Part shown: positions 9,111-28,930 of the stretch, one piece after another
How the letters are laid out: every line of letters starts with the position of its first letter
How positions within the stretch are numbered: position 1 is the stretch's first letter
From: Escherichia coli
Lineage (GTDB): Bacteria > Pseudomonadota > Gammaproteobacteria > Enterobacterales > Enterobacteriaceae
DNA length: 64,000 nt
Assembly (NCBI RefSeq): GCF_016026235.1
Contig: NZ_CP065613.1
Direction: 5' to 3' (one strand)
The notes under the pieces: generated by a model
What the model was told of the DNA's origin: nothing
Databases searched by the model: none
The model's input: the letters and a program-made list of their open reading frames with translations, nothing else
Translations under genes and position numbers: made by a program

Positions 9111-9123
9111 AGCAGGAAGCATT

Positions 9124-9152
9124 GCCTGATGCGCTACGCTTATCAGGTCTAC
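9124..9152. repeat. REP (repetitive extragenic palindrome) element
   Basis: GCCTGATGCGCTACGCTTATCAGGTCTAC matches the REP consensus pattern; lies between convergent cobB and potD. Confidence 0.7.
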
Positions 9153-9230
9153 AAGCGGACCACAATACCGACGAAAGAGCGGGATAAAACTTTACTGTCC
9201 TGACTCATTAGCCACATCCTTGCTAACTAA

Positions 9231-9260
9231 AAAACGGGCGGTAATACCACCGCCCGTTTG
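9231..9260. terminator. bidirectional rho-independent terminator between cobB and potD
   Basis: Hairpin CGGGCGGTAATACCACCGCCCG flanked by an A-run upstream and T-run downstream. Confidence 0.7.
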
Positions 9261-9265
9261 CTGAA

Positions 9266-14559: not shown

Positions 14560-14700
14560 CCCGATGCGTATGTGGACTGCCAATTACCGGGATGAAACCG
14601 TTATATTGACACTGGTCCACATACTTATCGTGCCTACAGGCGTTCAGTGCATGTAGGCACGATAAGGCGCAATCAGCGCCGCATCCGGCTTAAATCCAAA
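14560..14700. repeat. REP-like palindromic repeat cluster between pepT and roxA
   Basis: Inverted repeats GTATGTGGAC/GTCCACATAC and GCCTACAGGCG...GCGCCGCATCCGGC in a convergent intergenic region. Confidence 0.5.
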
Positions 14701-14701
14701 C

Positions 14702-15823
14702 TTACCCTTCGAAGAACCAATACCCGCTATTGACCAGCGCCGCGAGCATCGCGAGGAATGACGGATCTTCCAGCGCATCGCCAAAATTCTCCGCAGTCAG
14801 CGCAATGTTGCTGGCGAGTGCATCCAGTGCCGGACGGTGCGGGGAATCGATCTTCTCACCATTGGCATACACGTCGTCGCCAATGCGCAATACGCGCAGA
14901 CCACCCAGGCGCACCAGCACATCACCTTGTTTCAGCGCATCGTAGATCTCATCTGGCTGATAAGGCGGCTCTGGCGGCGCGATATCCAGTTCATGACGTG
15001 ACTGGGATATAAACTCGCCAAACCATTGCTTAAAGTGTTCCGGCTGGTTGATCAATTCGAGCATCATCTCACGCAGTTTATCCATCTCTTGCGGCAGAAC
15101 ATCCGCAGGATGAGCGCGAGGTGGAACATCAGGATCGCTGTAGTAGTTGCCGCCCAGTTCACGTTGCAGCACATAATCGGCAAATCCACTAATCAGTTCC
15201 CGCGTATTTGGCGCGCGAAAACCCACGGAATAGTTCATCGCATTTTCCAGCGCGTAGCCTTCATGCGGGAATCCTGGCGGAATATAAAGAATATCACCAG
15301 GCTCCAGCTCTTCATCGATGATGGCTTCGAACGGATCGACCTGTAACAGATCCGGATGTGGGCAGTGCTGTTTCATTTGCAGCTTTTCGCCCACTCGCCA
15401 GCGACGACGTCCGGTACCCTGAATGATAAACACGTCGTACTGATCGAGATGCGGGCCGACGCCGCCGCCAGGTACAGAAAAAGAGATCATCAGATCATCA
15501 ATACGCCAGTCCGGTAGTTCACGGAACGGTCGCATCAGCGCGGCGGTCGGCTCATGCCAGTGGTTCACTGCTTGCACTAACAATGACCAGTTAGTTTCAC
15601 CGAGATGATCGTAGCTTTCGAACGGACCGTGGCTGACCTGCCATTTTCCATCCTGGTGACTGACCAGTCGACTGTCGACTTCGCTTTCCATCGCCAGACC
15701 CGCCAACTCGTCTGGAGAGATCGGGTCAATAAAATTATTAAAGCCGCGTTTTAACACCACCGGGCGTTTCTGCCAGTGACGTTCAAGAAAATCGGGCCAG
15801 TTAAGAGTGAGTTGGTATTCCAT
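14702..15823 (-). CDS. roxA: ribosomal protein uL16 arginine hydroxylase RoxA (YcfD), JmjC/cupin 2-oxoglutarate oxygenase
   Basis: ATG at 15823 (MEYQLTLNWPDFLERHW), 373 aa. Confidence 0.88.
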   Translation of the reverse strand: MEYQLTLNWPDFLERHWQKRPVVLKRGFNNFIDPISPDELAGLAMESEVDSRLVSHQDGKWQVSHGPFESYDHLGETNWSLLVQAVNHWHEPTAALMRPFRELPDWRIDDLMISFSVPGGGVGPHLDQYDVFIIQGTGRRRWRVGEKLQMKQHCPHPDLLQVDPFEAIIDEELEPGDILYIPPGFPHEGYALENAMNYSVGFRAPNTRELISGFADYVLQRELGGNYYSDPDVPPRAHPADVLPQEMDKLREMMLELINQPEHFKQWFGEFISQSRHELDIAPPEPPYQPDEIYDALKQGDVLVRLGGLRVLRIGDDVYANGEKIDSPHRPALDALASNIALTAENFGDALEDPSFLAMLAALVNSGYWFFEG

Positions 15824-15898
15824 GTTAAGCATCCACAGGCTGGTATCTGCAACCGATTATAACGGATGCTTAACGTAATGCGTGAAGTATGGACATAT

Positions 15899-17359
15899 TT
15901 ATTCATCTTTCGGCGTAGAATGCTGGCGACCAAAAATCACCTCCATCCGCGCACCGCCAAGCATGCTCTCTCCGGCGACGATTTTACCCTCATATTGCTC
16001 GGTGATTTCGCGGGCTACCGCCAGCCCTACACCTTGCCCAGGGCGTAAAGTATCAACCCGTTGACCACGGTCGAAAATGACCTCTCGCTTGCTTAATGGA
16101 ATACCGGGTCCATCATCCTCGACCACAATATAGAGATGCTCGTCGGTTTGCCTTGCAGAAATTTCGACAAACTCGAGGCAATATTTACAGGCATTATCCA
16201 GCACATTGCCCATCACCTCGACAAAATCGTTCTGCTCACCGACAAAGCTGATCTCTGGCGAAATATCGAGAGAGATATTGACCCCTTTGCGTTGATACAC
16301 TTTGTTCAGCGCCGAGGTGAGATTGTCCAGCAGTGGGGCGACCGGATGCAGCTCGCGGCTGAGCAATGTCCCGCCGCGCATACTGGCACGATGCAGGTAG
16401 TAGCCAATTTGCTGTGAAATGCGGCTGATTTGCTCCAGCATTACCGGTTCAGCATCACTGACGCTCATCTTTTCACTACGCAGAGAACGCAGCGTACTTT
16501 GCAGCACCGCCAGTGGCGTTTTCAGACTATGGGTCAGGTCGGTGAGCGTTGTACGATATTTGTCGTAACGTTCGCGTTCACTTTTTAACAATCGGTTCAG
16601 GTTTCGTACCAGACTGGTCAGTTCTCGCGTTGTGGCTGGATTGAGCAATTCGCGGTTATGTTCTTCCAGTTCGCGGACTTCTTTTGCCAGAGCTTCGATG
16701 GGGCGTAAACTCCACCAGGCGGCGACCCACAGCAGCGGGATCACTAACAGCAGATTGGCTGAGAGCACATAGATAAACCAGCTCCAGACCATATAGGAAC
16801 TTTTTAGCTCCACCGGAATGGTATCCACCACCACAATGGTTAACTTTGGCATCCGCGATGTTGCCGGGTAGACGTTTACCGCCACCGAGTGGGTCATCTC
16901 CGCGTCGTCATCATCTTCCCGCACTTCCTGCAACTGTTGCTGTATCGAATGATCTCCACTCAGCAAGAGGCTGGTATCGTTAACATCCGCTTCAATTTCA
17001 TGAAAACCATTCGATTTCAGCCAGTCAGGCTGGATCATCTTCATCAGCCAGGGCACGTCACGTTGCGCCCATAAAAGCTGCCCGTTCTCATCATAAATTA
17101 GCGTCATGGTGGGGCTTTGCTTGTCGATATTTTCGGGTAACTCGACATGCAACTTATTGTTTTCCCACTTCGCAAGGGTATAGAACAGATTGCTCTCGCC
17201 ACGTAACAGCCGAAACGTAGTTTTATCGAAACTGACGCTATAACCGATCAGCGCGACCATTCCGTAGGCAAGCGAAAGCACCAGTACTACCGCTGCCGTT
17301 GCCAACAGAAAACGTACCCGCAGCGAGAGCGGGAAAAAAAGACGCAGTAATTTTTTCAT
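15899..17359 (-). CDS. phoQ: sensor histidine kinase PhoQ
   Basis: 486 aa, [33 protein letters not shown], acidic periplasmic patch EDDDDAE, HisKA/HATPase motifs; ATGA overlap with phoP. Confidence 0.95.
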
Positions 17360-18030
17360 CAGCGCAATTCGAACAGATAGCCCTGGCCGCGAACGGTGGT
17401 AATCACTTCTTGGGGATATTGTGCCTGAATTTTTTTGCGCAGACGTCCCATCAGTACATCAATGGTATGGCTTTCCCGCAGCTCCGCATCCGGATAGAGT
17501 TGGAGCATTAACGAATCTTTGCTGACCACTTTGCCATTATTGCGTATCAACGTTTCCATAATGGTGTATTCGAACGCGGTCAGTTTGATCACTTCGTCAT
17601 TAATAGATAATTCACGGCGAGAGAGATCAACCTGAAACGGGGGTAGCGAAATGACCTGTGAAGCCAGACCGCTATTACGCCGCATTAATGCCTGCATTCG
17701 CGCCATCACCTCTTCAATATGAAATGGTTTAGTCACGTAATCATCAGCACCAGCACTTAATACTTCGACTTTGTCCTGCCAGCTTTCACGGGCGGTTAAT
17801 ACCAGAATCGGCAGTGAAACATCATTGCTACGCCAGCGGCGAATCAGTGACAGACCGTCCTCGTCTGGCAATCCGAGATCGACAATCGCAATATCCGGTA
17901 AATGTTCATTGAGATAATAATCGGCTTCTTTGGCATCTTCTGCATCATCGACCTGATGACCAGCATCCTGAATCTGAACTTTAAGGTGGTGACGTAACAA
18001 CGCATTGTCTTCAACAACCAGTACGCGCAT
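17359..18030 (-). CDS. phoP: response regulator PhoP
   Basis: 223 aa [40 protein letters not shown]; OmpR-family receiver plus winged helix. Confidence 0.95.
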
Positions 18031-18090
18031 TTTTATTTCTCCCTGTCTTAATTATTAAAATAGTGTAACGCGATTATGTGGTTATGGGGG

Positions 18091-18107
18091 TAAACATTAA
18101 ATAAACC
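18091..18107 (-). promoter_or_regulatory. PhoP box (direct repeat GGTTTA-N5-TGTTTA) in phoPQ promoter
   Basis: Reverse complement of 18091..18107 reads GGTTTATTTAATGTTTA, about 60-75 nt upstream of the phoP start; matches the known autoregulated phoP promoter architecture. Confidence 0.75.
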
Positions 18108-18197
18108 AGCGGGGAGGGGAGGTAAAGTGAAAAAATAAAAAGCGGATAATCTTAATAAGCAGGCCGGACAGCATCGCCATCCGGCACTGATACGAGT

Positions 18198-19571
<1,374 letters not shown>

Positions 19572-20213
19572 TCACAACTCCGGGGTTAAATGAGCAAGAA
19601 TTTGTTTTGCCTGAGTGGTCAGGCGATTACGAGAAAACATCAATTGCAGACGTCCGCCGCCGACCTGGTGCCAGAGCACGGCGGCGCGAATGCCTGCCAG
19701 CAGGGTTGCGCGAACTTTCGCCTGCACTTGTGGGCTTTGCAGTACAGCAGGGGAACCGGTGACCTGAATGCGCGGGCCAAGCGGGCTAATCACATCAACA
19801 TAGATAGCAGCCATCGCGCTCATCAGCGTTTCGGACTGTAAATCGAAGTGTTCGAGCTGGCGTTGCAGGCCGTTGATCCGGTTGCCCAGAGTGTCGAGCG
19901 CACCTTTCGCTGAGGAGAGTTTGCGCTCAAGCACCATCAGACTGAGTGTGTAGCGGGTTAATTCGGCGTTTAAGCCCTGGCGACTGCTGGCATTGAGCAC
20001 GCCGAGCAGGGTTTCCAGCCCGACGCGCAGGTTGGCTTCGCTACCGCCAAAAACCGCCAGCGTCGAGCTGGGGTTCATATCAATAATACTGTTGAGTGAG
20101 ACGTGTAGCGCATCGGCATCACAATGCCCCTGGTGAGCGAGTTGTTGCACCAGGCGTGCCGACTGACAAATACCGGCCAGGGCGAGGGTGATGTCATAGT
20201 AATTCTTTGCCAC
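19572..20213 (-). CDS. hflD: high-frequency-lysogenization protein HflD
   Basis: Track ORF begins at a GTG (20219); K-12-like start [10 protein letters not shown] is a GTG at 20213; 213 aa. Confidence 0.85.
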
Positions 20214-20248
20214 GTTCACTGCTTCCTTGTTTTAAGTAAAGATAATAA

Positions 20249-21870
<1,622 letters not shown>

Positions 21871-21879
21871 TTTGCATCC

Positions 21880-22533
21880 TTAATCTGTCACTTCTCGCCA
21901 TTCGCCATTAGCAAGATTATCCAAAGAGTAATCACCCATCGCATAGCGAATCAGTCGCAGCGTGGGGAAACCAACATGGGCGGTCATGCGGCGCACCTGG
22001 CGATTACGTCCTTCATATAAGGTGATCTTCAGCCAGCTGGTGGGAATACTTTTGCGTTCACGAATTGGTGGATTCCGCGGCCATAACCACGCAGGTTCGT
22101 CAACCAGCTCCGCGCCGGCGGGCAGGGTAGGGCCATCATTTAAGGTTACGCCATTGCGCAAGGCTTCAAGTGCGTCTTGTGTGGGAATACCTTCCACCTG
22201 CACATAATAGATTTTTCCGGTGCGTTTACCCGGCTGGGTTAAACGCGCCTGCAACGCGCCGTTATTGGTCAGCACCAGTAACCCTTCGCTATCGCGGTCA
22301 AGACGACCTGCTGCATAAACGCCCTGAACCGGGATGAATTCTTTTAATGTTTTGCGTCCGGCTTCATCGGTGAACTGCGGAAGAACATCGTAGGGTTTAT
22401 TGAACAGGATCACACGCGTGGGCTGGTTTTCAGGTTTACGCCTGGTAGAACGTTGCGAGCTGAATCGCTTAACCTGGTGATTTCTAAAAGAAGTTTTTTG
22501 CATGGTATTTTCAGAGATTATGAATTGCCGCAT
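21880..22533 (-). CDS. rluE: 23S rRNA pseudouridine synthase RluE
   Basis: 217 aa, RsuA/RluE-family motif [17 protein letters not shown]. Confidence 0.9.
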
Positions 22534-22705
22534 TATAGCCTAATAACGCGCATCTTTCATGACGGCAAACAATAGGGTAGTATTGACAAGCCAATTACAA
22601 ATCATTAACAAAAAAATTGCTCTAAAGCATCCGTATCGCAGGACGCAAACGCATATGCAACGTGGTGGCAGACGAGCAAACCAGTAGCGCTCGAAGGAGA
22701 GGTGA

Positions 22706-23956
22706 ATGGAAAGTAAAGTAGTTGTTCCGGCACAAGGCAAGAAGATCACCCTGCAAAACGGCAAACTCAACGTTCCTGAAAATCCGATTATCCCTTACAT
22801 TGAAGGTGATGGAATCGGTGTAGATGTAACCCCAGCCATGCTGAAAGTGGTCGATGCTGCAGTCGAGAAAGCCTATAAAGGTGAGCGTAAAATCTCCTGG
22901 ATGGAAATTTACACCGGTGAAAAATCCACACAGGTTTATGGTCAGGACGTCTGGTTGCCTGCTGAAACTCTTGATCTGATTCGTGAATATCGCGTTGCTA
23001 TTAAAGGCCCGCTGACCACTCCGGTTGGTGGCGGTATTCGTTCTCTCAACGTTGCCCTGCGCCAGGAACTGGATCTCTACATCTGCCTGCGTCCGGTACG
23101 TTACTATCAGGGCACCCCAAGCCCGGTTAAACACCCTGAACTGACCGATATGGTTATCTTCCGTGAAAACTCGGAAGACATTTATGCAGGTATCGAATGG
23201 AAAGCTGACTCTGCCGACGCTGAGAAAGTGATTAAATTCCTGCGTGAAGAGATGGGCGTGAAGAAAATTCGCTTCCCGGAACATTGTGGTATCGGTATTA
23301 AGCCGTGTTCAGAAGAAGGCACTAAACGTCTGGTTCGTGCAGCGATCGAATACGCAATTGCTAACGATCGTGACTCTGTGACTCTGGTACACAAAGGCAA
23401 TATCATGAAGTTCACCGAAGGCGCGTTTAAAGACTGGGGCTACCAGCTTGCGCGTGAAGAGTTTGGCGGTGAACCGATCGACGGTGGCCCGTGGCTGAAA
23501 GTCAAAAACCCGAACACCGGCAAAGAGATCGTCATTAAAGACGTGATCGCTGATGCGTTCCTGCAACAGATCCTGCTGCGTCCGGCTGAATATGATGTTA
23601 TCGCCTGTATGAACCTGAACGGTGACTACATTTCTGACGCCCTGGCAGCGCAGGTTGGCGGTATCGGTATCGCCCCTGGCGCAAACATCGGTGACGAATG
23701 CGCCCTGTTTGAAGCTACCCACGGTACTGCGCCGAAATATGCCGGTCAGGACAAAGTTAACCCAGGTTCTATTATTCTCTCTGCTGAGATGATGTTACGC
23801 CACATGGGTTGGACCGAAGCCGCAGACCTGATTGTTAAAGGTATGGAAGGCGCAATCAATGCGAAGACCGTAACCTATGACTTCGAACGTCTGATGGAAG
23901 GCGCTAAACTGCTGAAATGTTCAGAGTTTGGTGATGCGATCATCAAAAATATGTAA
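22706..23956 (+). CDS. icd: NADP-dependent isocitrate dehydrogenase
   Basis: 416 aa [41 protein letters not shown]-terminus ends [21 protein letters not shown] (the non-e14 form, see findings). Confidence 0.95.
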
Positions 23957-23977
23957 ACACTACATGTGTTAAATATT

Positions 23978-24008
23978 TAAACGGGCGTATAACACGCCCG
24001 TTGTTTTA
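23978..24008. terminator. rho-independent terminator shared by icd (+) and the iraM remnant (-)
   Basis: Hairpin AAACGGGCGTATAACACGCCCGTT followed by TGTTTTATTT. Confidence 0.75.
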
Positions 24009-24309
24009 TTTATGTGGATATTATTAATAGCATATCGAGCATATTTATATAAAACCCATTACTTGAGCCCATATGGGCATATTTTTATAATACAACTCTT
24101 ATGCAAACATTTATTTGTTATTTCGCTTTCTCCTGGAGGACACTCTTGACTGCTTTTGAGTAAACTCCATAAATTCTTGTTGAATGGTGCAATGTTATAA
24201 ATAGTTATAGGATATTCTTTATCCTTAAGGATAATACCAGGCTTAACCAGTGTAGGTAATGCTGCCAACTTACTGATTTAGTGTATGATGGTGATTTTAA
24301 GGTGCTTGC

Positions 24310-24585
24310 GTGGCTTCCATTTCCATCAGATGTCCTTCCTGCTCCGCTACTGAAGGCGTGGTGCGTAACGGCAAAAGCACTGCCGGACATCAGCGCTATC
24401 TCTGCTCTCATTGCCGTAAAACATGGCAACTACAGTTCACTTACACCGCCTCTCAGCCCGGTACGCACCAGAAAATCATTGATATGGCCATGAATGGCGT
24501 CGGATGTCGCGCCAGTGCACGCATTATGGGCGTTGGCCTCAACACGGTTTTACGTCACTTAAAAAACTCAGGCCGCAGTCGGTAA
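24310..24585 (+). CDS. insA: IS1 InsA (transposition inhibitor / N-terminal part of InsAB' transposase)
   Basis: 91 aa [39 protein letters not shown] (GTG start), zinc-finger motif; about 90 percent identical to the canonical InsA as I recall it. Confidence 0.9.
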
Positions 24586-25007
24586 CCTCGCGCATACAAC
24601 CGGGCAGTGATGTGATTGTCTGCGCTGAAATGGACGAACAGTGGGGCTACGTCGGTGCTAAATCACGTCAGCGCTGGCTGTTTTACGCGTATGACAGGAT
24701 ACGGAGGACGGTTGTGGCGCACGTCTTCGGTGAACGCACTCTGGCCACACTGGAGCGTCTTCTGAGCCTGCTGTCGGCCTTTGAGGTCGTGGTATGGATG
24801 ACGGATGGCTGGCCGCTGTATGAATCACGCCTGAAGGGAAAGCTGCACGTTATCAGCAAGCGTTACACTCAGCGCATTGAGCGACATAATCTGAATCTGA
24901 GACAACATCTGGCAAGGCTGGGACGGAAGTCACTGTCGTTCTCAAAATCGGTGGAGCTGCATGACAAGGTCATCGGGCATTATCTGAACATAAAACACTA
25001 TCAGTAA
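24504..25007 (+). CDS. insB: IS1 InsB (expressed as InsAB' fusion via -1 frameshift at the A6C motif 24561..24567)
   Basis: 167-aa ORF in the -1 frame overlapping insA; slippery TTAAAAAACTC present. Confidence 0.88.
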
Positions 25008-25615
25008 GTTGGAGTCATTACCACCAGTGTAAATATACTTCCAGGAGGAAGAAATATAGTAGATTGATACCAGATAATCATTTTCATATCACCCCATATG
25101 GCTGAAAAAGATATGCCGCATGTAGGTTGAATTACCGTGTCAATTACTACCCACTTCATTTGTTATGTCTTATCCCACGGTATTTAATATAGTTCATTTG
25201 GATGTTCATTTCTTTATTTTGCATATGAGTATATTACCCCTTCAAAAAATAAATTAATTAAAACGATTGCTTATATAAAACAAAATTTAAAGCAAGGAAT
25301 CTCAATGGATGTTAAACAAAATGAGATTTAGTGAAAACAATAAATTATTCACTTCGTTTTAGATTTGTTTAGCTATAATGTTATACATTCAAATGACTGA
25401 CCATCCTGTAATTAAAACATAGCCTTTATGCTACTTTGTGCCAATTTGCTAAACATTATGGTTGCCTTTTTATATAACGATAATAATGAATATAAGCATG
25501 ACATGAGAATAAGGTTTCAATTTTTGAGTTATATAGGAAAGGTTTAACCTGTTCCTGGCTAAAATACATATAACTGGATGATGACTAAACCAAAACACAT
25601 GTGCGTTAAGTATTG

Positions 25616-25645
25616 AAACGGGCGTATGGCACGCCCGTTGTTTTT
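25616..25645. repeat. second copy of the icd-terminator-like hairpin (direct repeat of 23978..24008)
   Basis: AAACGGGCGTATGGCACGCCCGTTGTTTTTAT, preceded by ACACATGTGCGTTAAGTATTG, similar to the sequence following the icd stop; no plus-strand gene upstream to terminate. Confidence 0.6.
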
Positions 25646-25854
25646 ATAAATATATTAAACGTTATGAAATAACGTATAGAAAGTCAAGTGATCACATTTC
25701 AAATATCAATTTGATAGTATTGGCCTGGTGATTATTTATGGGTAGCAATAAAAGGACAGTATTTATCATCCATAGGGATAGTCTCTGTACTTTTATTCCC
25801 ATTATGCTAATGCCTTACTGAATTATGAAGCATTTCTTAAGCATCCAACTTTAG

Positions 25855-26259
25855 CTAGATTAATGGTTTATTATTTTCTACATCTTCAATATATAAAAGC
25901 GTATTATCAATGGCGTAGTAACTGCGTTTGTTATGATTAACATCAGTAACCCAACGGAAAACGCCCGCGTCTGCCAGTGTTGAACAGTATTCCCGAAATG
26001 TAGATTTTCCGCAAATATGAAGCAATGCGGCCTCTTTTATTTTAGCAGGGTTCTTGGTCGTACTAACTTTTAACAGGTTCCTGGTTCCTCTTAATAACAA
26101 AACCGTGTCATCGTGAGTAATAATTCTGATGTTATCCGTAGCCAGATAATAAATGTAATGTGCAATACGGTGATGTTTTAATTCTGAATAAAACCAGGAG
26201 AAGTTTTGCTCTTTTCTCACTTGCTCAAACATCTTTTGAAAAACAACGACCTGATCCAT
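25855..26259 (-). CDS. ycgX: DUF1398-family protein YcgX
   Basis: 134-aa ORF, ATG at 26259; position upstream of bluR as in K-12. Confidence 0.8.
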   Translation of the reverse strand: MDQVVVFQKMFEQVRKEQNFSWFYSELKHHRIAHYIYYLATDNIRIITHDDTVLLLRGTRNLLKVSTTKNPAKIKEAALLHICGKSTFREYCSTLADAGVFRWVTDVNHNKRSYYAIDNTLLYIEDVENNKPLI

Positions 26260-26479
26260 CAGGATAATAACCTCTTGTTAGTTGTGAGACTGCGTAGTGT
26301 GCACGATCGGTTTTACCACTTCAATCTGGTCTGTTCTTTGGCTGTGATATGTACAGAGTGTGATAGAGGGATTACCTGAATTCTCCCGGTGAGCATTTTG
26401 CAACGGACCAGCTCCGGTACAAATGCTGTTGTGGGTTCAGATTATAACATTCTGTCTAAGGGGCAGGATAAAGGTGAAA

Positions 26480-27211
26480 TTAGGGGGCATGAAAGATGAC
26501 TTTATAACCTTGCTCACCCCAGTGTTGTAAAAGTTCATTTTGCCTTCTCGTTGGTGCCATGCCTGTCCAGACAATCAATGTTTGCGTCGGGAACAGTTCT
26601 GGGCGCGGTGATTCAATGGGATCAGCAAGAACAGAAATGTGCCATCCTGACAATGATAAACGCCATGCTTCCAGCCACAATCGTGCTCTCTCTTCAACAT
26701 TCCATGCCATCAGAATGGCTTCTTTACCGGGCTTACGGCGCATTTCGAAAAGCGAGGCTGCTGCGTATTCAATTAGTGCGCCGTCAAACATACTGCTCAT
26801 AATGCGGGAGGTGTTGTGATCAAGCACGAGACGCTGGCGAACAGGAAGGTAAACATGATTAATCAATTGATCTACTGGGTACTCTCGACCCAGTGAAATA
26901 ATTCTCGCGCGTAGTTTGGCAGGATTAGCCATACGAAGAATTGACATCATCTCTTCTTGCAGGCGGCTCCAGTCATCTTCCGTATCCTGGCTGGTGGTTT
27001 CCAGTAATGCTTTAACTTTGCCTACAGGGACGCCATTACTTATCCAACGCTTGATCTCTTCGATGCGTTGTATGTCTTCTTCATCAAAGAGTCGGTGTCC
27101 GCCTTCACTGCGCTGTGGTTTTAACAAACCGTAGCGGCGTTGCCAGGCCCGGAGAGTGACAGGATTAATCCCGCAACGTTCAGCAACATCACCAATGCTG
27201 TAATAAGCCAC
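26480..27211 (-). CDS. bluR: MerR-family transcriptional repressor BluR (YcgE)
   Basis: 243 aa, N-terminal Mer[37 protein letters not shown] start at 27211. Confidence 0.9.
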
Positions 27212-27405
27212 AATTCCTCCTTGCGGTCATAAATCTCCGTCGCCTGTACACGACCCAATAATACTTTGTACAATATACGCTAAAATTGTACAAAGTATAA
27301 ATAAGATTTCAGCTAAATTGGATGAAACATTATTTTTAATGTGGATTAAATTAAAGCATAACGTATTCATTTTCACGATGATTTACTGAAATCATGTGCT
27401 GAAAA

Positions 27406-28617
27406 TTATTTTTTTTCTGGCCACGCAACTGAAGGGATACCATTCAATTTAGCTTTAGCAAACAGATCCCCCTGAAACATCTCAATTCCTGCGGATTCAA
27501 GCCACATCCACTCTTCTGGTGTTGCCACGCCCATAGCAGAGACTTGAATTTCAAGTGATGTACAGCATTTTATGATCGCCTGAATAATTGCCTGCCGTGG
27601 TCCGCTTTTATGAACATTGGTAATCAATTCCTGACTGATTTTAATTCTGTCAGGCTGGAAGCGTGACAGGAGTAACAAACCAGCAAAACCTGCGCCAAAA
27701 TGATCAATTGCTACACTGATACCGGCAGCCTTTAGCGATTTAACCGCTTCGGCAAACTCATCAAACCGAGATATGACTTCACTTTCAGTAAATTCAACGA
27801 TGATTTGTTCAGGCACCAGAGCATTGGCCTTTATTTCATCAAGTAAAAAAGAGACTGCGTCAGGCTCGTTAACCAGGGTCATAGGTAATAGATTGATTGA
27901 AATCATTTTATCACCGAGCTCAAGTGCGTGTGCCATCGCGAATGCAAGCGCCTTACTTTTAAGATCCGCTGTGTAGATTTCCCCGTCTTTACGCTGCCCA
28001 ACCGCTATAGCTGACGGGCTGTCTTCATTTTTTTGCACAATGGCTTCAAAAGCGATTATCCGCCGCGATAAGGGATCAACAATAGGATGAAAGGCAAAGT
28101 GGTCGTTTATAGTTGGTGAAAGGGTACAGGAATCAAGTTCTTTATCAGATCTGTCAGCGATAAAAAGCCAGGAGTCTTCAGCAGGAATCTCGAAATAGGT
28201 TGATTGTTCGGTTGCAAGGACAAAAGTACGAAAAAATTGTAGCGCTCTGTCATCATAAGTTAGCTGAAATTTTGATGTGCCTTTGTCGAATACGGCCTGT
28301 AAAACGTCATCTCGCTCGTGTAGGCGTAAATCAAATAATTCCATTCCCGCTTTGCCAAAACGGCGAGCAGGCGCGTAATCGCACAGCAGCTCAACAATAT
28401 TATAGTGCCGTGGATCCTGGCATATAGCCCGATATATCATTTTAACCTGTTCTTCCGGACCTTCCAGAAGCTGGAAAAAATGAGAACCATTAAACAGTAA
28501 GATCCCTGTTACGTCAGACTGCATGTTCCTGCGATTTGCAATCGAAACCATTTCTTCGATTTTTTTGACAGGTTCGTCGTCACGTATATGGCTACGATAA
28601 ATAAGGGTGGTAAGCAT
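27406..28617 (-). CDS. bluF: blue-light sensor BluF (YcgF), BLUF domain plus degenerate EAL domain
   Basis: Track ORF trimmed to ATG at 28617 (MLTTLIYRSHIRDDEPV...), 403 aa; BLUF motif ILLFNGSHFFQLLEGPEE. Confidence 0.9.
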   Translation of the reverse strand: MLTTLIYRSHIRDDEPVKKIEEMVSIANRRNMQSDVTGILLFNGSHFFQLLEGPEEQVKMIYRAICQDPRHYNIVELLCDYAPARRFGKAGMELFDLRLHERDDVLQAVFDKGTSKFQLTYDDRALQFFRTFVLATEQSTYFEIPAEDSWLFIADRSDKELDSCTLSPTINDHFAFHPIVDPLSRRIIAFEAIVQKNEDSPSAIAVGQRKDGEIYTADLKSKALAFAMAHALELGDKMISINLLPMTLVNEPDAVSFLLDEIKANALVPEQIIVEFTESEVISRFDEFAEAVKSLKAAGISVAIDHFGAGFAGLLLLSRFQPDRIKISQELITNVHKSGPRQAIIQAIIKCCTSLEIQVSAMGVATPEEWMWLESAGIEMFQGDLFAKAKLNGIPSVAWPEKK

Positions 28618-28930
28618 TAACTGTCCAGGGTAATGGGAGTGGCGAGAGTAAGACGGTAACAGACATATCTTCCGGTGTCTTTCTTTTAATACCAAAACAT
28701 AACTGTTTCTTTGCATTGATAGAAAATGGAAAAAGTTGAACACGAGTTGGCGAAAAATCTTGTATAGTTTGTCAGTTAAATGATGCAATATGTTTTATCA
28801 TAACGTATTGTTTTATATGTATTAGCACTAATTGCAAAAAATTAATTTATCATTCTGTACACATATTTCGTACAAGTTTGCTATTGTTACCTCACTTAAC
28901 ATTGATTAACATTTTTAACAGAGGCGTAGC

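Follow-up and report, generated by a model that had tools for sequence, protein, structure and literature searches.

IraM is an anti-adaptor of Escherichia coli. Its gene is activated by PhoP, and the protein stabilises RpoS by binding RssB (PMC8483737; PMC9496106). In strain K-12, PhoQ induces iraM about 20-fold on osmotic upshift, and delta-iraM cells show a longer lag and slower recovery (PMC5740661). Here we analyse a 64,000-nucleotide stretch of an E. coli genome (contig NZ_CP065613.1; hereafter the window) in which iraM is interrupted by a copy of IS1, an insertion sequence (IS).

In the crystal structure of IraM with RssB, the folded unit spans residues 1-78, which form a beta-barrel, a hairpin and a helix (PMC10844676). 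The contacts that IraM makes with RssB fall into cluster I (residues 4, 6, 22, 26 and 42), cluster II (13, 14, 18, 30 and 75) and cluster III (61-64), together with Pro66 (PMC10844676). On its own, IraM(1-78) is insoluble (PMC10844676). IraL, the paralogue of CFT073 and Shigella, belongs to the same PmrD-like anti-adaptor family and also binds RssB (PMC4045071). Natural disruption of iraM has a published precedent as well: an ISApl1 insertion interrupts the gene in an mcr-1-positive E. coli clone of sequence type 617 (ST-617; PMC5404521).

We read the locus in the window as the product of one simple transposition event, in which an IS1F-type IS1 entered codon 46 of iraM and left a null allele, a reading to which we give a probability of about 0.82. 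The evidence comes from the restored gene, from the structure of the element and its borders, and from the way in which the insertion divides the folded core of the protein.

The inserted element and the gene it interrupts

When the IS1 copy and one of the two flanking repeats are deleted in silico (24255-25031), a 324-nucleotide open reading frame (ORF) of 107 amino acids is restored on the minus strand. The restored protein matches NCBIfam model NF007393, 'anti-adapter protein IraM', over residues 1-107 with 168.4 bits (cutoff 121) and PDB entry 8TWD (IraM residues 1-78) with E = 3.7e-45; it has the same sequence as the IraM annotated in E. coli FDAARGOS_943 and as WP_001312752.1. Pfam PF11183 (PmrD) is recorded on the identical intact 107-residue protein, which occurs in 1,477 blocks of a public gene-position index. 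The restored 667-bp empty site has a 100% match in the uninterrupted locus of 12 complete genomes of E. coli, FDAARGOS_943 among them, and the annotation there is iraM. An earlier reading of this DNA, made from the letters alone (the sequence-only reading), had proposed that two halves of IraM flank the element and join to 107 residues; the restored ORF, its score against NF007393 and its identity to the FDAARGOS_943 protein bear this out, and the flanking translations align with K-12 iraM (99 of 107 residues identical).

Perfect 9-bp direct repeats, ACCAGTGTA, abut both ends of the IS1, with exactly 768 bp between the copies; two fixed positions would share an exact 9-mer by chance with a probability of about 4e-6. 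The IS1 begins with GGTAATGCTGCCAACTTACTGAT, which GGTAATGACTCCAACTTACTGAT at the opposite end repeats in inverted, imperfect form, with 20 of 23 positions matching. Both termini, about 23 bp each and starting GGT(A/G)ATG, have the same sequence as the termini of IS1F. In gapless global alignments the inserted copy is identical to the IS1F of K-12 at 763 of 768 positions (99.35%) and to K-12 IS1A at 700 of 768 (91.15%). The boundaries and the target duplication given by the sequence-only reading stand, the latter being present on both sides here and once in the empty site. Its estimate of roughly 90% identity to canonical IS1 agrees with the IS1A figure, and the narrower name for the copy is the common IS1F type. 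Close copies carry the name 'IS1-like element IS1F family transposase' from the Prokaryotic Genome Annotation Pipeline (PGAP); copies 100% identical to this one occur in many E. coli genomes, and identity is 99% or more in 3,926 records.

The IS1 copy is complete, with inverted repeats, insA, insB and the A6C site intact, and looks competent for transposition. Its InsB part scores 147.9 bits against the NF033558 model of IS1 family transposases (cutoff 100), and a simulated -1 shift at AAAAAAC yields a 232-residue InsAB' fusion without a stop. No second IS1 lies within the 64-kb window. Shigella was considered as the source of the DNA and set aside, given this single IS1 and no other feature in its favour. 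A composite transposon was considered and rejected because the IS1 is single; the event is a simple insertion and not part of a composite element.

How old is the insertion? FDAARGOS_943, the closest relative, differs from the window at 3 positions in the 13.1 kb left of the IS and at 1 position in the 1.4 kb right of it; over 25 kb on the right side the two are 99.9% identical. In FDAARGOS_943 iraM is intact and the site is empty. Because the site is empty in so near a relative, we judge the insertion to be recent on the time scale of the FDAARGOS_943 lineage and private to the lineage that carries it. An IS1 at the same site and in the same orientation was found in none of the 5,426 complete E. 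coli genomes examined. Searches of metagenome contigs with the exact 37-mer across the left junction returned nothing, and the 52- and 69-residue ORFs created at the junctions are not on record among called genes. Genome HCP6S3_I1, which seemed to match in one piece a synthetic query whose IS1 had been turned round, was considered as a carrier of the same allele and rejected, its insertion lying about 17 bp away with a target duplication of its own. The strain studied here and FDAARGOS_943 form a natural near-isogenic pair for gauging the contribution of the IraM branch outside K-12.

The surroundings of iraM are conserved. The gene order rluE, icd, iraM, ymgK, ymgL, ycgX, bluR, bluF is that of K-12 minus the e14 prophage, and the interval from icd to bluR is collinear with FDAARGOS_943. 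In K-12, iraM has been described as lying 'on the e14 prophage' (PMC4045071). In the window (22706-24060), icd is followed directly by iraM, with neither the e14 prophage nor the icdC pseudogene; since no e14 stands beside icd, iraM is here chromosomal flank and not part of e14. The G+C content of iraM is 34%, against 49% for the window. The iraM region (23792-24267) is 93.3% identical to K-12, compared with 98-99% for the surrounding genes.

Beside these features, an imperfect 43-bp direct repeat (88%) at 23965-24007 and 25602-25644 brackets iraM-ymgK and holds the icd terminator hairpin (AACGGGCGTAT..CACGCCCGTTGTTTT). Without the IS1, the bracketed segment measures about 817 bp with 30% G+C; both copies of the repeat are present in FDAARGOS_943. 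The arrangement resembles a scar left by some old insertion at the 3' end of icd.

Table 1. Positions of the interrupted gene, the IS1 copy and phoPQ in the window, with IS1 insertions inside iraM in other complete E. coli genomes given at the equivalent window position
Feature	Position	Strand	Description and basis
IS1, IS1F-type isoform, 768 bp	24255..25022	+	Transposase genes antiparallel to iraM; alignment to K-12 IS1 copies
IS1 left terminal inverted repeat (IRL)	24255..24277	+	
IS1 right terminal inverted repeat (IRR)	25000..25022	+	
insA, 91 amino acids	24310..24585	+	Starts with GTG, like K-12 insA1; matches IS1 and zinc-binding domain models; 94.6% identity to K-12 InsA1
AAAAAAC (A6C) slippery site	24561..24567	+	-1 frameshift to InsAB'
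insB frame, open, 167 amino acids	24504..25007	+	NF033558; 91% identity to K-12 InsB1
Target-site duplication ACCAGTGTA, 9 bp, left copy	24246..24254		Single copy in the empty site of 12 genomes
Target-site duplication ACCAGTGTA, 9 bp, right copy	25023..25031		Abuts right IS1 end
iraM 3' fragment	24059..24254	-	Gene nucleotides 129-324, residues ~44-107, stop codon 24059-24061; translation, tblastn
iraM 5' fragment	25023..25159	-	Gene nucleotides 1-137, residues 1-46; translation, tblastn
iraM upstream region (promoter), uninterrupted	25160..25560	-	95.3% identity to K-12
phoPQ operon, intact	15899..18030	-	PhoP 223 amino acids, PhoQ 486 amino acids
phoP	17359-18030	-	Full length; 479.8 bits, cutoff 336
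phoQ	15899-17359	-	Full length; 957.3 bits, cutoff 497
PhoP box GGTTTATTTAATGTTTA, phoP promoter	18091..18107	-	Consensus scan and comparison with K-12
IS1 in iraM, HCP6S3_I1	~24229-24237		Simple insertion, target duplication GGATAATTC
IS1 in iraM, STEC388	~24248		
IS1 in iraM, NT1F25	24225		
IS1 in iraM, 21AR0133	24170		One flank lost, prophage sequence on that side
IS1 in iraM, AL.H8	24150		

What remains of IraM and the predicted effect on the PhoPQ-to-RpoS branch

On the minus strand, the reading frame of iraM runs through TTT ACA CTG GTG to the junction and continues in the IS1 as GTA ATG ACT CCA ACT TAC before the stop codon TGA. The break thus falls after codon 46, and the resulting ORF (25159..25001) encodes 52 residues, IraM 1-46 followed by VMTPTY. 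The 3' part of iraM is in frame with an ORF of 69 residues whose TTG start lies inside the left end of the IS1 (24268). No outward promoter-like site was found at IRL, and no obvious Shine-Dalgarno sequence precedes the TTG. The two longest ORFs left from IraM contain 46 and 64 of its native residues, and no uninterrupted coding sequence (CDS) gives the folded core of about 78 residues. We therefore class the locus, judging from these ORFs, as an iraM pseudogene and not as a functional member of the family. The 52-residue peptide lacks beta-strand 6 with cluster III (61-64), Pro66 and Leu75; of the beta-barrel core of 78 residues, about 40% is gone. Because the break lies inside this folded core, a null allele is the best reading.

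As the sequence-only reading had claimed, phoPQ and its PhoP box are intact: both ORFs are full length with one substitution each relative to K-12, and the region upstream of phoP, the box included, equals that of K-12 but for a length difference of 1 nucleotide at its distal end. A scan of the window with the PhoP-box consensus, allowing at most one mismatch, found the phoP promoter and one 1-mismatch site at 36981-36997. The 400 bp upstream of iraM are intact, and PhoP regulation of the gene is known only from papers on K-12.

What would follow when PhoQ/PhoP is activated? The iraM promoter, PhoP-driven in K-12, would yield at most the 52-residue peptide, in which six residues are encoded by the IS. 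RssB would then not be sequestered at low Mg2+, in acid via EvgAS-SafA or on osmotic upshift, and RpoS would be handed on to ClpXP under these conditions. The other anti-adaptors, IraP and IraD, and the other controls on RpoS would be unaffected. On this account the sensing system is present while its RpoS output branch is predicted to be cut. From the K-12 work (PMC5740661) and the position of the break in the folded core (PMC10844676), it is reasonable to infer, as the sequence-only reading did, that the link from PhoPQ to RpoS is probably lost. The strain should accordingly show no PhoQ/PhoP-triggered rise of RpoS at low Mg2+, in mild acid (via EvgAS) or on osmotic upshift, its phoPQ being intact. 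The PhoP-RpoS coupling described in K-12 is not to be assumed for every E. coli. No second IraM-like ORF was found within the window by tblastn, and IraL was rejected as a candidate there, both by tblastn and because the potABCD operon is uninterrupted and holds no potB island.

Several points weigh against this account. The N-terminal fragment keeps all of cluster I and four of the five contacts of cluster II, and may retain some binding to the receiver domain of RssB. Upstream of iraM there is no match to the PhoP-box consensus with at most one mismatch; the candidate sites there carry 2-3 mismatches and are indistinguishable from chance. The allele was already 8 residues away from K-12 IraM, including His63Asn in contact cluster III; the intact identical form of the allele is widespread. 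Finally, the window does not reach rpoS, rssB, mgrB or a possible iraL elsewhere in the genome.

Insertions at iraM in other genomes and competing explanations

Megablast detected iraM in 3,937 of the 5,426 complete E. coli genomes; the other 1489 (about 27%) lack it. Among the carriers, 3,913 hold at least 80% of the gene in one piece, leaving a fragmentary gene in at most 24 (at most 0.6%). An IS1 lies within about 1-2 kb of iraM in the same orientation as in the window in 37 genomes and in the opposite orientation in 26. We mapped at least 12 distinct IS1 junctions in and around iraM (window equivalent 24057-26226) in other complete E. coli genomes. The junctions mapped in 12 genomes include seven distinct sites outside the iraM CDS, one of them overlapping the stop codon. 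Three of the seven are simple insertions with 9-bp duplications, three have adjacent deletions reaching pdeG, ymgA or ycgH, and in EC590 the IS1 has a remnant of ISVsa5 immediately to its right. Several IS1 copies of the region bound deletions that remove ycgX, bluR, bluF, ycgZ-ymgAB or pdeG, or that reach ycgH. Two different IS1 isoforms share a left junction at about 25502.

At least five other genomes carry an independent IS1 inside the iraM CDS (Table 1), all annotated by PGAP as partial IraM pseudogenes. Their sites lie 0-100 bp from the insertion in the window, at different positions; their IS1 copies have the opposite orientation and belong to other isoforms, 91-95% identical to the copy described here. 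One flank has been lost in four of the five (three by an adjacent deletion, one with prophage sequence on that side), and only HCP6S3_I1 is a simple insertion like that in the window. With the window included, four of the six hits in the CDS fall within 24225-24254. Is iraM then a hot spot for IS1? With IS1 at a median of about 11 places per genome, random and independent insertion would give roughly 4 hits in 324 bp over 5426 genomes. The observed hits are of the same order as this rough figure, and we do not claim a hot spot.

The structure that we describe could also be the outcome of selection. Cutting the PhoP-IraM-RpoS path would lower RpoS and its cost, for example where loss of mgrB makes PhoQP hyperactive or where nutritional competence is selected. 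An mgrB knockout regains its fitness when iraM or rpoS is deleted (PMC10746255), and the ISApl1 hit became fixed in the ST-617 clone (PMC5404521); the six or more independent IS1 hits in a CDS of 324 bp, four of them within 30 bp, and the absence of iraM from more than a quarter of the genomes point the same way. Against selection stand a count that is not clearly enriched over the expectation and the small number of carriers with a fragmentary gene. The allele of the window, moreover, is found in no other genome searched, and mgrB and rpoS fall beyond the ends of the window. We regard selected loss as possible, if unlikely. A broader form of the idea takes iraM-ymgK-ymgL-ycgX as a true IS1 hot spot where the PhoPQ-IraM-RpoS branch and, through adjacent deletions, the BluR/BluF-YcgZ-YmgAB-PdeG biofilm module are adaptively pruned, the loss of iraM compensating for over-accumulation of RpoS; we consider it distinctly improbable. 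Were it true, RpoS would be costly after, for example, antibiotic-selected changes in mgrB or PhoQ, and the window would offer a fresh example with FDAARGOS_943 as its iraM-positive comparator.

Other explanations question the consequence of the insertion or the insertion itself. One is that a fragment of IraM is active, either the 52-residue peptide binding the receiver domain of RssB or the 69-residue C-terminal ORF expressed from the end of the IS1. The peptide does retain contacts 4 (Val here), 6, 22, 26 and 42 as well as 13, 14, 18 and 30, and a TTG within IRL shares the reading frame of the C-terminal half. Yet half of the beta-barrel is gone along with cluster III, Pro66 and Leu75, even IraM 1-78 is insoluble alone (PMC10844676), the C-terminal ORF lacks the expression signals sought above, and comparable alleles are pseudogenes according to PGAP; activity of either fragment is very hard to credit. 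It is just as improbable that the effect falls not on IraM but on ymgK, ymgL, ycgX or icd, through read-out from the IS1 or polarity. In other genomes, IS1 in this interval is linked to the deletions listed above, whereas the insertion here is simple, with its duplication present and its flanks collinear with K-12 and FDAARGOS_943. In addition, iraM is a monocistronic gene that converges on icd, the icd terminator (23980-24002) is intact, and any transcript reading out through IRR would run antisense to ymgK, ymgL and ycgX. That an assembly artefact misplaced an IS1 in iraM is scarcely conceivable. Assemblies from short reads often go wrong at IS elements; this one, however, is full length with both ends, its junctions are continuous, and it is flanked by an exact 9-bp duplication of a sequence that is single-copy in relatives, which a misassembly would not create. 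A simple IS1 transposition that inactivated iraM remains our preferred reading, and most likely the insertion reflects the taste of IS1 for AT-rich, dispensable DNA. It reveals no new mechanism: the mutation is of an ordinary, recurrent type with precedents in genomes and in the literature. Across public genomes, the pattern for iraM is that of an AT-rich accessory gene which is often missing and into which IS elements have inserted repeatedly.

The rest of the window and comparison with described systems

Elsewhere, the window departs from K-12 at several places. In the cobB-potD interval, ycfZ and ymfA (about 1.3 kb in K-12) are absent at 9111-9265, an arrangement common to some other E. coli. 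A 1.9-kb segment at 53078-54978 is absent from K-12, where an IS1414 remnant stands; the ORF at 53005-54414 (minus strand) encodes a leucine-rich-repeat protein of 469 residues that resembles the leucine-rich-repeat part of the type III effectors SlrP and SspH2 but lacks the full length of these effectors. Past ymgE, the sequence from 59755 to 64000 differs from K-12 and encodes a TonB-dependent receptor (663 residues), ModD, a methyltransferase-like protein and an ATP-binding cassette (ABC) ATPase, apparently an island for metal or siderophore uptake. The autotransporter gene ycgH (32747-35409) consists of two ORFs of 157 and 721 residues and is probably a pseudogene here, as in K-12. The sole Rfam match in the window, unrelated to iraM, is the small RNA C0299 (RF00119, 111.9 bits) at 43515-43593 on the plus strand.

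The potC/potB junction (about 11112) holds no insertion; it is the 'potB island' site, at which CFT073 carries iraL. In FDAARGOS_943 a lambdoid prophage that contains IS66 and ISSso6 is inserted at potB/potC (14590-31001 of its compared stretch).

Among described systems, the closest to the interrupted gene is K-12 IraM (also YcgW or ElbA), the RssB anti-adaptor encoded at the same icd - iraM - ymgK - ymgL - ycgX - bluR locus and likewise 107 residues long. The two proteins differ by I4V, N24D, P45L, S48P, H63N, D70N, K87E and N95K. K-12 iraM is uninterrupted, whereas the gene in the window is split after codon 46 by IS1, beside an icd without the e14 prophage. IraL is more distant: it is 58.9% identical to IraM, is expressed from sigma70 in log phase and resides in the potB island, while the gene in the window is of the iraM type and lies at the icd locus. 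The closest described counterpart of the inserted element is the IS1F of K-12 MG1655 (NC_000913.3 4518472-4519239), which shares its length of 768 bp, its inverted repeat sequences, the layout of insA and insB and the A6C site, and differs by 5 substitutions. That copy occupies another genomic location, and its insB7 is annotated as a pseudogene; the insB frame of the copy in iraM is open and a 232-residue InsAB' is possible. A published natural disruption of iraM by an IS is ISApl1::iraM of the ST-617 clone (PMC5404521), which has the same predicted consequence, no protection of RpoS under Mg2+ starvation. The element there differs in belonging to the IS30 family and in duplicating 2 bp of its target, and it struck the gene in another lineage (PMC5404521).

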